A stretch of DNA of 59,298 nt from an uncultured Candidatus Saccharibacteria bacterium. Lineage in GTDB: Bacteria > Patescibacteriota > Minisyncoccia > JACQLN01 > CAZPCT01. A model generated the notes under the pieces. That model had not been told where the DNA came from, ran no database searches, and saw only the letters and a program-made list of their open reading frames with translations. This document shows, piece by piece, positions 9,088-59,298 of the stretch (position 1 is the first letter of the stretch; every line of letters starts with the position of its first letter). Location of the stretch: assembly GCA_964600085.1 (NCBI GenBank), contig CAZRHU010000002.1, positions 1-59,298 on the forward strand. The letters run 5' to 3'. Made by a program: the position numbers and the translations under genes.

Positions 9088-9212
9088 GGTTTTTTATTAA
9101 GTATTATTTTAAAACGACCTTTTGATAGGTGTTGAAATTATTATAATCGTAAAAAAAAGAGTGTCAACCCTTTATTTATATTCTTGTCCACATAAAAGTT
9201 TAAAAAAATAAA

Positions 9213-26184: not shown

Positions 26185-27018
26185 TTAAGGTTGCTTTTTA
26201 AACTTTAGAGAGTTATAAATCTTAAGCCAGTCTTCTTTTTTTATCTCATGAGCTCTAATTCTCGGACTTAAATCTAGTAGTTTTAACTCTTTTTCTAATT
26301 CTGACTTATCCACAGACTCTAACTCTAAAAGATTATTTAATAAAGTTTTTCTTGGTTGTCTAAAACTCTTTTTTAAAAAATTTATAAAATTATTTTTGTC
26401 TTTTATTCTATTTGCTTTAATGGGCTTGATTTCTATAATTGCCGAGTCAACTTTTGGTTCTGGCCAAAAATTCTCTTTTTTTATAATTGTTTTTAAGCTA
26501 GCTCTTCCTAAAAACGAAATCGTCGTAGAAAGAAAATTAGACTTTGGAGGTGTGGCAACTATTCTCTCCGCTACTTCTTTTTGAATTGTGAGGACGATTG
26601 ATTTGGGAAGGTTTTTCGTTAAGAGAAATTTTCTTATAATAGGTCCGGTGATGTAGTAAGGGATGTTTCCAACAACCTTGTAAGGTTGTTGGAGTTCTTC
26701 TTGGTTAAAGTTCAAGATGTCACCCTCTACAACTTTAAAGTTATTTTTTTCTTTAAATTTACTCTTTAATACCTTTACAAAATTTCCATCTTTTTCTACG
26801 GCGATTATTCTACTTCCCCTTTTTAAAATTTCATCAGTTAAATTTCCTGGACCAGGACCTATTTCTAATATTGTTTCACTTGGCGACACTTCAATCAAAT
26901 CAGCTATTTCTTCTATAAATTTTTTATTAACTAAAAAATTTTGACCCTTATATTTAGAAGGTTTTAACATTTTTTCTGCGAGTAATTTTTTTATCTCTTT
27001 TTCTAGATCTTTTTCCAT
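26185..27018 (-). CDS. rsmA: 16S rRNA (adenine1518/1519-N6) dimethyltransferase
   Basis: GQNFL motif and SAM-binding EIGPGPGNLT. Confidence 0.9.
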   Translation of the reverse strand: MEKDLEKEIKKLLAEKMLKPSKYKGQNFLVNKKFIEEIADLIEVSPSETILEIGPGPGNLTDEILKRGSRIIAVEKDGNFVKVLKSKFKEKNNFKVVEGDILNFNQEELQQPYKVVGNIPYYITGPIIRKFLLTKNLPKSIVLTIQKEVAERIVATPPKSNFLSTTISFLGRASLKTIIKKENFWPEPKVDSAIIEIKPIKANRIKDKNNFINFLKKSFRQPRKTLLNNLLELESVDKSELEKELKLLDLSPRIRAHEIKKEDWLKIYNSLKFKKQP

Positions 27019-57866: not shown

Positions 57867-58523
57867 TTAAGAAAAATAAACAGCTTTTTCTATGTGTTCT
57901 ATCTTAGCTCTACCTGTGTTTTTATCCAATATAATTCCAATTACGTCAATCTGCCAATCAATATTATTAGGTAATTTTTTATGAGATAAGTAAAGTTGAC
58001 AAGAACGCATTAATCTTTTTTGCTTTGAGTAAGTCACTTGTTCTTCCGGCCTCATTATATTTGAGCTCATTGTTTTAACCTCAACAAAGACAATCTTCTC
58101 TCTGAATGCATGTATTGAGCTTTGTTGAATTGTTCTACGTGGAACAATTAGTTTGTTTTTGCTAAAAATAGATTTTAATTTATTCCATATTGTTCTACGT
58201 GCTTGTCTGTTCCGTAGGCGGGGAACATTTTGATCTTTTTTCTCATTTTCTAGCTTTCTATTTTTCTCCATAATTGTTCCACGTGGAACAATTCGATCTT
58301 TTTTCTCAATTTTTAATTTTCTATTTTTCTCCATAATTGTTCCACGTGCCTGCCCGTTCCGTAGGTGGGGAACAATATCTTCTTTTTTAGAGCAAATAAT
58401 GTCAATTTCTCCCCATTTTCGACGAAAATTTCTATCAATTATCTTGTAACCTTTTCTTTCTAGGTGTTTTGAGGCTATTTCTTCTCCCCAAGCCCCAATT
58501 TTTATATTTGAACTGTTTCCCAT
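57867..58523 (-). CDS. yraN: YraN/UPF0102 PD-(D/E)xK nuclease-fold protein carrying a roughly 95-aa repeat insertion
   Basis: GAWGEEIASKHLERKGYKII..RKWGEIDII and VFVEVK..QKRL..IDWQIDVIGI match YraN. The normal spacing of about 5 aa between the D and ExK motifs is replaced by IVPRGTI/IVPHLRNGQARGTI repeats. Confidence 0.8.
   Translation of the reverse strand: MGNSSNIKIGAWGEEIASKHLERKGYKIIDRNFRRKWGEIDIICSKKEDIVPHLRNGQARGTIMEKNRKLKIEKKDRIVPRGTIMEKNRKLENEKKDQNVPRLRNRQARRTIWNKLKSIFSKNKLIVPRRTIQQSSIHAFREKIVFVEVKTMSSNIMRPEEQVTYSKQKRLMRSCQLYLSHKKLPNNIDWQIDVIGIILDKNTGRAKIEHIEKAVYFS
58138..58385. repeat. four palindromic repeat units (two short, two long) plus a duplicated 45-nt spacer, in frame inside yraN
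   Basis: Short units AATTGTTC(C/T)ACGTGGAACAATT lie at 58138-58159 and 58282-58303. Long units ATTGTTCYACGTGC(C/T)TG(C/T)C(C/T)GTTCCGTAGG(C/T)GGGGAACA lie at 58199-58238 and 58345-58385. Confidence 0.85.
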
Positions 58524-58594
58524 TTTTTCTTTTTATTGATTTATCAACTCACAGTCGATCCACTGAAGGTTGATAATTTTTTATTTTCTCTTAA

Positions 58595-58636
58595 AATTGT
58601 TCCACGTGCCTGCCCGCTCCGTAGGTGGGAACAATT
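58595..58636. repeat. fifth copy of the long palindromic unit, intergenic
   Basis: AATTGTTCCACGTGCCTGCCCGCTCCGTAGGTGGGAACAATT, 72 nt upstream of the yraN start. Confidence 0.85.
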
Positions 58637-58694
58637 TTAAAAATCAATAACTCTATAATTTTTAAGGTTATATAATCTATTATCTTGAGACACT

Positions 58695-58828
58695 GAACCT
58701 GTCCGGTCGAACCTGTCCGGTCGAACCTGTCCGGTCGAACCTGTCCGGTCGAATGACCGGATGACTGGATGACTGGATGACCCCTCAAGAGGGGTCGAAC
58801 CTGTCTGGTCGGATGACCGGATGACCCC
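58695..58828 (+). repeat. GC-rich tandem-repeat promoter-upstream module, copy C
   Basis: GAACCTGTCCGGTC x4 (58695-58750), GAATGACCGGATGACTGGATGACTGGATGACC, hairpin GACCCCTCAAGAGGGGTC (58779-58796), a further 14-mer, then GGATGACCGGATGACCCC abutting TTGACA. Confidence 0.85.
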
Positions 58829-58857
58829 TTGACAACTTATCATTTTATTGATATAAT
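58829..58857 (+). promoter_or_regulatory. consensus sigma70 promoter TTGACA-N17-TATAAT
   Basis: TTGACA at 58829-58834, 17-nt spacer, TATAAT at 58852-58857. Confidence 0.75.
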
Positions 58858-58906
58858 AGAACACATAGTTCCAATTTTGTCCAAAATGCTTTAACAAGGA
58901 GAAATT

Positions 58907-59101
58907 ATGAACAAGACTGAGATCGTCCCAACTTCTTCTGTCTCTCACTCAAATCGCTCCAAGCTCTTTCCTCGGCGCTGTGCCCCAACTCAGGTCGAGG
59001 CGCAGAGAAGAGAAGAGGTGGACTGGTCCTTCGGTCGGCGAGCCGGTCGGGTCAAGAAGTTTGATCCTCATGCCAACATGCTGGAGATCTCCAGGGCCTG
59101 A
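58907..59101 (+). CDS. 64-aa basic protein of unknown function in a GC-rich mini transcription unit (could instead be a non-coding RNA)
   Basis: AAGGAG lies 7 nt upstream of the ATG. The unit sits between a consensus promoter and a 15-bp-stem terminator. Hand count of 58981-59040 gives 38/60 G+C, and codon usage (GTC, CTC, CGC, CTG, AAG) is unlike neighbouring genes. Confidence 0.45.
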   Translation: MNKTEIVPTSSVSHSNRSKLFPRRCAPTQVEAQRREEVDWSFGRRAGRVKKFDPHANMLEISRA

Positions 59102-59123
59102 CGGACAAGTACCATTTTCTGAC

Positions 59124-59169
59124 GGAGCTCCGATCCGCCAACTGGCGGATCGGAGCTCTTTTCTTTTTT
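59124..59169 (+). terminator. strong intrinsic terminator
   Basis: GAGCTCCGATCCGCC-AACT-GGCGGATCGGAGCTC followed by TTTTCTTTTTT. Confidence 0.85.
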
Positions 59170-59176
59170 AATACTT

Positions 59177-59206
59177 TTGCTAATCTGTTACTATATATTA
59201 TATAAT
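59177..59206 (+). promoter_or_regulatory. candidate tRNA promoter TTGCTA-N18-TATAAT
   Basis: TTGCTA at 59177-59182 and TATAAT at 59201-59206, about 20 nt upstream of the tRNA. Confidence 0.45.
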
Positions 59207-59225
59207 TGTATTTCAGAAATACAAT

Positions 59226-59297
59226 GCGCCTGTAGCTCAATGGTAGAGCGCTAAGCTTATACCTTAGTGGTTCTAGGTTCGAGTCCTAGCGGGCGCA
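59226..59297 (+). tRNA. tRNA-Ile with genomically encoded UAU anticodon
   Basis: Acceptor GCGCCUG/CGGGCGC, D-arm GCUC-AAUGGUA-GAGC, anticodon stem CUAAG/CUUAG with loop CUUAUAC, and T-arm CUAGG-UUCGAGU-CCUAG. The window ends 1 nt after the discriminator. Confidence 0.75.
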
Positions 59298-59298
59298 C

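Follow-up and report, generated by a model that had tools for sequence, protein, structure and literature searches.

A GC-rich mini transcription unit of a Parcubacteria genome, probably a lineage-specific orphan gene behind an apparently copied expression block

Introduction

What does a short GC-rich stretch of DNA, endowed with its own promoter and terminator, specify in an otherwise AT-rich genome: a small protein, an RNA, or nothing of use to the cell? The question is raised by a mini-unit of about 300 nt that lies within the final 470 bases of contig C2. The genome measures 592 kb in 44 contigs, is 98% complete and has 37.3% G+C; judging by its gene content, it belongs to the Parcubacteria/Paceibacteria within the candidate phyla radiation (CPR). 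Contig C2, 59,298 nt long, is called the window in what follows. An earlier note on this DNA had left two readings side by side, either an acquired small basic protein or a dual-function or non-coding RNA. The first branch, that of an acquired small basic protein or recent import, is the one that we favour, on the basis of codon usage, of a leader, Shine-Dalgarno (SD) motif and start codon homologous to those of WG-repeat genes, and of the absence of the unit from the corresponding site of the nearest genome; the stable RNA found no positive support. On balance, the unit is probably a lineage-specific orphan mini-gene belonging to a GC-rich accessory pool, likely to be translated into a basic protein of 64 residues.

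Anatomy and setting of the unit

The mini-unit is placed between yraN (UPF0102), carried by the minus strand, and a gene for tRNA-Ile(UAU) at 59226-59298, which runs to the contig end (Table 1). Its G+C content, 0.51 against 0.36 for the window, is the highest of any 307-nt stretch and falls within the top 0.03% of positions; the hand counts that had first drawn attention to it, 38/60 G+C at 58981-59040 and 21/60 at 26221-26280, were exact. The promoter matches the consensus at 12/12 positions, with a TG-n ahead of TATAAT that makes it an extended -10 promoter; the 592 kb of the genome contain 13 perfect-consensus promoters, this one included. It had been described as the strongest of the window, and perfect it is, but it shares this rank with a second 12/12 promoter, at 9167 on the minus strand, the spacer of which is 16 nt long. 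Transcription would start near 58864, which leaves a leader of 43 nt from this putative start to the ATG, with the SD motif in a loop of the predicted fold.

What follows has the layout of a protein-coding gene: AAGGAG-N5-ATG, then a frame of 64 codons that ends 22 nt before a hairpin. The ORF at 58907-59101 and its 64-residue peptide are identical to those quoted in the earlier note, which had also noticed AAGGAG and the ATG; the spacing between them is N5, not N7 as was given there. The terminator begins 22 nt past the stop codon with a perfect 16-bp stem (59124-59159), followed by TTTTCTTTTTT. At -34.5 kcal/mol this hairpin is the most stable before a T-run in the window, the runner-up reaching -25.2 kcal/mol, and the claim that this terminator is the strongest of the window stands.

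Table 1. Features of the mini-unit and of related GC-rich loci (positions without a contig name are those of the window)
Feature	Position	Strand	Remarks
GC-rich hairpin-forming repeat module	58695..58829	+	14-nt unit GAACCTGTCCGGTC x4 plus 8-nt GGATGACY units
Promoter, sigma-70-type	58829..58857	+	TTGACA 58829-58834, 17-nt spacer, TATAAT 58852-58857
Leader	58858..58906	+	AAGGAG at 58896-58901; homologue of WG-repeat-gene leader
ORF, 64 codons + TGA	58907..59101	+	product pI 10.8, Arg/Ser-rich
Intrinsic terminator	59124..59169	+	16-bp GC-rich stem, 4-nt loop, T-run
Neighbour outside the unit	59177..59298	+	promoter-like TTGCTA-18-TATAAT, then tRNA-Ile(UAU) to contig end
WG-repeat copies, first four	C1:10928-11281, C4:3-164, C6:1-153, C17:9592-9852		
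WG-repeat copies, last four	C23:44-217, C24:3-164, C27:3-170, C31:5491-5574		
GC-rich hyper-basic orphan ORF, 91 aa	C3:25952-26227	+	pI 12; GC 0.58
GC-rich hyper-basic orphan ORF, 140 aa	C1:10268-10690	-	
GC-rich hyper-basic ORF, 75 aa	C36:3671-3898	+	

The DNA of the unit produced only short chance matches in 60 relatives and in about 400 genomes sampled across the class, and it had no match in phage DNA, plasmid DNA or metagenome contigs; no donor was identified. The nearest genome, G001, which belongs to the same family but to another genus, does not have the unit at the same site: there, the gap between yraN and tRNA-Ile(UAU) contains a different small ORF, on the opposite strand. Atypical GC content (0.51-0.60 against 0.373 for the genome), together with absence from the syntenic site in G001, classes the region as a recently acquired or accessory island.

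Two observations on the boundaries of the unit may be recorded here. An AT-rich inverted repeat of 13 nt (58668-58680 and 59193-59205, 92% complementary) flanks the module and the unit; this may be the trace of an insertion, or a chance occurrence in AT-rich DNA. Separately, the core of the terminator stem, ATCCGCCA(A/G)CTGGCGGAT at window 59128-59155, has a near-exact second copy at C28:5706, and near-exact copies are also present in three distant genomes of the class (L003 in G011, L004 in G037 and L005 in G058). The copy in G037 is placed within an apparent insertion, judged by eye only, of a 16S rRNA gene.

Origin of the expression signals

Upstream of the promoter stands a repeat module, the end of which, ...GGATGACCCC, directly abuts the -35 hexamer. 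About ten copies of this module are scattered across the genome, and the same junction, GGATGACCCC immediately followed by TTGACA, is found again at C24:406, in C31 and at window position 2132 on the minus strand. Local alignment established that positions 58720-58913 are homologous to the region upstream of a WG-repeat gene at C4:315(-). The aligned block, about 190 nt long, comprises the module, the promoter, the leader, the SD motif and ATGAACA, and the homology ends after codon 2. When the leader was aligned alone it scored 46, against 25.2 +/- 4.0 in shuffles, with 0/2000 shuffles reaching 46. The protein family involved, WG_beta_rep, is a real Pfam family. It would thus appear that the mini-unit has its promoter, leader and start codon copied from the expression block of the WG-repeat gene family. 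By the same homology, the AUG at 58907 corresponds to a start codon that works in the paralogous copies.

Beyond codon 2 the body of the unit is unrelated to the WG gene. Two other resident sources were considered and rejected: the repeat module did not give rise to the body (z<2 in all alignments), and it is not a paralogue or a decayed copy of a resident gene, as six-frame tblastn and blastn searches against the 592-kb genome found nothing. As to the proposal that the unit is driven by the repeat module, the promoter does abut the module, and module, promoter and leader were copied as one block, but there is no sign that the module activates transcription.

Other arrangements of these elements were met in the course of the analysis. 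In the window, at about 1790-2190 on the minus strand, a second copy of the module with its TTGACA is followed by some 330 nt devoid of any ORF, up to a terminator; this ORF-less stretch has no Rfam match at E<=0.01. Elsewhere, a conserved block associates a terminator hairpin, AAACGGCTCA(A/C)CCGG(G)TTGAGCCGTTT, with an identical perfect promoter, TTGACAAGATTATTATTATAGATTATAAT. It is present at C1:10768(-), C23:296(-) and C31:5412(+), its terminator part also being found in C4, C24 and C31, and it recurs before genes that differ from one another, WG-repeat genes in some places and a 140-residue basic orphan in another. Decayed copies of the cassette exist as well, for example at C4:30754(-), where a truncated WG gene lies behind a module.

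A GC-rich accessory pool and its ribosome-binding sites

Dozens of GC-rich islands punctuate this genome, and once rRNA, tRNA and tmRNA are removed, they consist mostly of protein genes. Among these are the WG-repeat family, a lipoprotein with SdrD_B/CarboxypepD_reg domains, a Tad4 homologue and several orphans. In this genome, then, GC-richness marks an accessory pool of protein genes, many of which sit behind perfect consensus promoters. The WG-repeat family (PF14903) has at least eight copies (Table 1); as many of them are cut by contig ends, this family probably breaks the assembly. The Tad4 homologue is a 194-residue ORF, C43:1901-2485(-), on a 2.6-kb contig with 60% G+C, and it matches the Pfam family with E=1.9e-29. 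Tad4 is a phage inhibitor of type I Thoeris, and its presence suggests that phage-derived DNA has entered the accessory pool. The pool also holds hyper-basic ORFs, on C3, C1 and C36, with a pI of 11.5-12. At least those on C3 and C1 are placed behind a TTGACA promoter, and neither of these two (91 and 140 residues) has a homologue besides itself. A similarity between the 64-residue ORF and the basic 140-residue ORF of C1 was sought and none was found.

The accessory genes further stand out by their SD motifs. In a crude count based on the first ATG, a motif precedes 8/14 GC-rich ORFs versus 20/383 AT-rich ones. The mini-unit had been credited with a strong SD, and AAGGAG is indeed there. Its strength has to be qualified by the 16S rRNA, the 3' tail of which is GGAUCACUUCUAAC instead of GGAUCACCUCCUUA, so that the anti-SD core is CUUCU and not CCUCC (C39:3123-3347(-), L056 1124-1348). 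AGGAG may form four Watson-Crick pairs and one G-U pair with this tail. Because the anti-SD is degenerate, the SD of the mini-unit is weaker in its host than it appears, a point that we count against the reading of the unit as a mini-gene.

As an aside on this rRNA, the 16S gene is split over two contig ends, C9:1-1069(-) and C39:3123-3347(-), with model positions 1086-1297 missing. The split gene and several GC-rich contig ends may reflect an insertion in the rRNA gene, or a repeat at that place.

A frame with the codon usage of resident genes

Is the frame opened by the SD and the AUG a coding one? Its length carries no evidential weight, because all six frames of the unit are nearly free of stops: they hold only 2-4 each, and another frame is open for 86 codons. 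Codon usage is more telling. A codon table was built from 13 GC-rich protein genes of this genome; under it, the frame of the ORF scores +5.0 bits, the highest value of the six, the five remaining frames giving -10.7, -10.7, +3.6 (antisense, in phase), -6.5 and -6.2. A single outstanding frame, with the in-phase antisense frame coming second, is the pattern expected of a coding sequence. Shuffles preserving the composition of the ORF score -17.8 +/- 7.6 on average (P=0.0009), and stop-free shuffles give P=0.005. The score of the ORF, 5.05, is reached by 0.1% of the stable-RNA windows of this genome and by 2.4% of the stop-free ones; 79.5% of held-out true coding windows attain that level. Codon usage thus speaks for a frame, the one set by the SD and the AUG, that codes at present or did so until recently.

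To be sure, other measures are less favourable. Purines occupy codon position 1 at a frequency of 0.55, versus 0.68-0.79 in native genes, which we count against the mini-gene reading, and the simple coding measures are weak (GC1/2/3 of 0.54/0.51/0.63). The 91-residue ORF of C3 fails the same codon test with a score of -10.2, and this too is held against that reading.

The peptide itself comprises 13 Arg or Lys and 7 Asp or Glu, for a net charge of +6. A hydrophobic transmembrane segment, as would be present in a type I toxin or a small membrane peptide, was sought in it and none was found. From the single sequence, AlphaFold2 predicts two short helices only (pLDDT 67, pTM 0.17), which fits a disordered peptide. 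That the peptide matches nothing recognised had been remarked from the start, and this held in tblastn, HMMER and profile searches, where no credible homologue came up. There was no match in a word search of 5.8 billion clustered proteins, no credible homologue in an exhaustive HMMER search of 1.84 billion representatives, and no match in Pfam, PHROGs, NCBIfam or PDB. Metagenome and genome contigs likewise gave no match and viral contigs no credible one, and six-frame searches of 400 genomes of the class came back empty. The pattern of the leader retrieved just six unrelated chance matches from metagenome contigs, and the two other open frames of the unit have no relatives in viral contigs.

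Two resemblances were scrutinized and judged to be due to chance. P0001, the sole match retained by HMMER (E=1e-6), consists of a translated 48-residue tandem repeat and has SFGRRAGRV in common with the peptide; its score is inflated by five repeats, one repeat alone amounting to 29 bits. The viral sequence L092, with 16/31 identities around FGRRAGRV, corresponds to the N-terminus of a phage tail or virion protein. FGRRAGRV is not conserved in the family of that virion protein, hhalign gives a probability of 6%, and given the scale of the database the match lacks significance. The exact peptide is absent from the protein collection, which indicates that the source annotation apparently did not call the 64-residue ORF; the 140-residue orphan of C1 is present there. 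The orphan status of the peptide, its absence from the collection, the poor fold prediction and the scarcity of stops in all six frames are likewise points against the mini-gene reading. Tryptic peptides of the 64-residue product would include TEIVPTSSVSHSNR and FDPHANMLEISR.

For a mini-gene of this kind, the following course of events may be proposed. A block of about 190 nt (REP-like module, consensus promoter, AU-rich leader with AAGGAG, then ATG-AAC) would have been duplicated from the front of a WG-repeat gene, and would now stand before a unique GC-rich body of 190 nt ending at a very strong intrinsic terminator. RNA polymerase carrying the primary sigma factor would produce a transcript of about 300 nt. 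Ribosomes would start at the AUG at 58907, in a leader predicted to be open, AGGAG pairing with the altered CUUCU tail of the 16S rRNA. The product would be a peptide of 64 residues, with net charge +6 and largely disordered, which, as far as its composition tells, would most likely bind a polyanion (RNA, DNA or an acidic protein).

Protein, RNA or by-product?

The alternative that deserves the closest look among RNA readings is a small regulatory base-pairing RNA, non-coding or dual-function as in SgrS/SgrT or RNAIII, in which the ORF would be incidental or secondary. We regard this as unlikely. A stand-alone intergenic unit of about 300 nt with a strong promoter and a strong terminator of its own is what such an RNA would look like; species specificity is common among small RNAs, the module copy at about 2132 on the minus strand precedes a stretch without ORF, and the peptide has neither homologue nor predicted fold. 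Yet, a scan of the window with all 4227 Rfam families at gathering thresholds returned only 7 tRNAs, and relaxing the cut-off to E<=10 over 58500-59298 added only chance matches, on the terminator hairpin and on the repeat module. The unit as a whole folds better than expected (z=-4.4), but this comes wholly from the terminator: without it, the body (58864-59122) shows no excess folding (plus strand, z=-0.38; minus strand, z=+0.39). At best, the rest of the genome offers a single 16-mer complementary to the unit, as expected by chance. Neither would codon usage specific to the SD-defined frame be expected of a pure RNA, nor does it suit one that leader, SD and AUG derive from a protein gene. 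With no Rfam family, no excess folding of the body and nothing conserved in relatives, the stable or non-coding RNA branch of the earlier note is left without positive support. A diverged housekeeping RNA that would have escaped Rfam, either SRP (4.5S/scRNA) RNA or 6S RNA, is highly improbable. A length of about 300 nt and a high G+C content would suit either, and no SRP RNA (RF00169, RF01854) or 6S RNA turned up in the genome. Against it, RNase P RNA and tmRNA are located elsewhere than in the unit, and Parcubacteria have been reported to be without ffh and ffs (Nelson and Stegen, 2015; PMC4508563), a loss reproduced in the 31 genomes formed by this one and 30 relatives: RF00169 matched 0/31, and the SRP54 GTPase domain PF00448 of Ffh and FtsY was found in 0/31 with reference controls 14/14 positive. 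Within this genome, tblastn with Ffh also gave no match. Because Ffh, FtsY and RF00169 are absent here and their loss is published for the group, no SRP RNA is expected. Moreover, a housekeeping RNA should be conserved, yet neither G001 nor 400 genomes of the class have the unit, the predicted fold of which does not show the rod-like pairing of 5' and 3' ends.

A last possibility is that the unit has no function at all, the block having been copied beside a piece of GC-rich coding DNA, foreign or decayed, so that we would be looking at a proto-gene or at a remnant. We hold this to be rather doubtful, if less easily dismissed than a housekeeping RNA. The cassette has been duplicated at several loci, with decayed copies such as that at C4:30754(-); the peptide is an orphan with no fold; other orphan GC-rich mini-units exist in the genome; and a recent gene fragment would also retain a coding-type codon signal. 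On the other side, a genome streamlined to 592 kb has kept a perfect promoter, an intact frame and a perfect 16-bp terminator, and the body is unlike any other resident gene in any frame, which leaves no parent gene to be named. We therefore return to the orphan mini-gene as the reading to be preferred.

Relation to known systems

The mini-unit resembles the ORFan small protein genes of acquired or accessory DNA: atypical composition, strong signals of its own, a short ORF without homologue, presence in one lineage and a position beside a tRNA gene. It differs from them in that its expression signals would not have been imported with the ORF, being copied from the cassette of a resident multi-copy family. 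Its closest counterpart in the same genome is the mini-unit at C3:25952-26227, located between housekeeping genes, which likewise associates a GC-rich insert, a TTGACA promoter, an SD motif, a hyper-basic orphan ORF and a terminator. The two have no sequence similarity, however, and that of C3 has no repeat module and a negative codon score. Dual-function small RNAs are independent transcripts of about 200-500 nt that also carry a short translated ORF. The mini-unit shares with SgrS/SgrT, RNAIII/hld and SR1/SR1P a putative independent transcript, an intrinsic terminator and a short ORF, but, unlike them, it has no base-pairing target, conserved structure or chaperone partner identified for it. 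Finally, the module recalls REP/BIME repeats, as a dispersed, hairpin-forming, GC-rich element immediately upstream of a -35 hexamer. The difference is that, at the locus of the mini-unit, module, promoter, leader and start codon appear to have been copied together; to our knowledge, the joint copying of promoter, leader and start codon has not been described as a property of REP/BIME elements.

The mini-unit is one more orphan small gene, only modestly unusual. What is modestly new is that a whole expression block, start codon included, seems to have been copied between unrelated genes. The lesson for this AT-rich, SD-poor and SRP-less Parcubacteria genome is that GC-richness flags accessory protein genes, not stable RNAs. 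By duplicating an expression block, streamlined symbionts could bring new sequence under strong expression in a simple way. As a tentative extension, which we consider conceivable without giving it much credence, the block may contribute to gene birth: a recombinogenic segment made of module, promoter, leader and ATG would copy itself before unrelated GC-rich DNA and thus create highly expressed, species-specific micro-proteins or RNAs. As a general 'promoter-and-start-codon donor', it would shape the accessory gene content of this Parcubacteria lineage. Should the peptide prove real, it would be a further member of the abundant but unexplored small basic proteins of CPR bacteria.

The tRNA gene next door calls for a separate remark. 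Of the relatives examined, 12/13 have a tRNA-Ile whose UAU anticodon is encoded in the genome (loci L035-L047), and in G001 the gene for tRNA-Ile(UAU) adjoins a yraN that carries parS-like palindromes.
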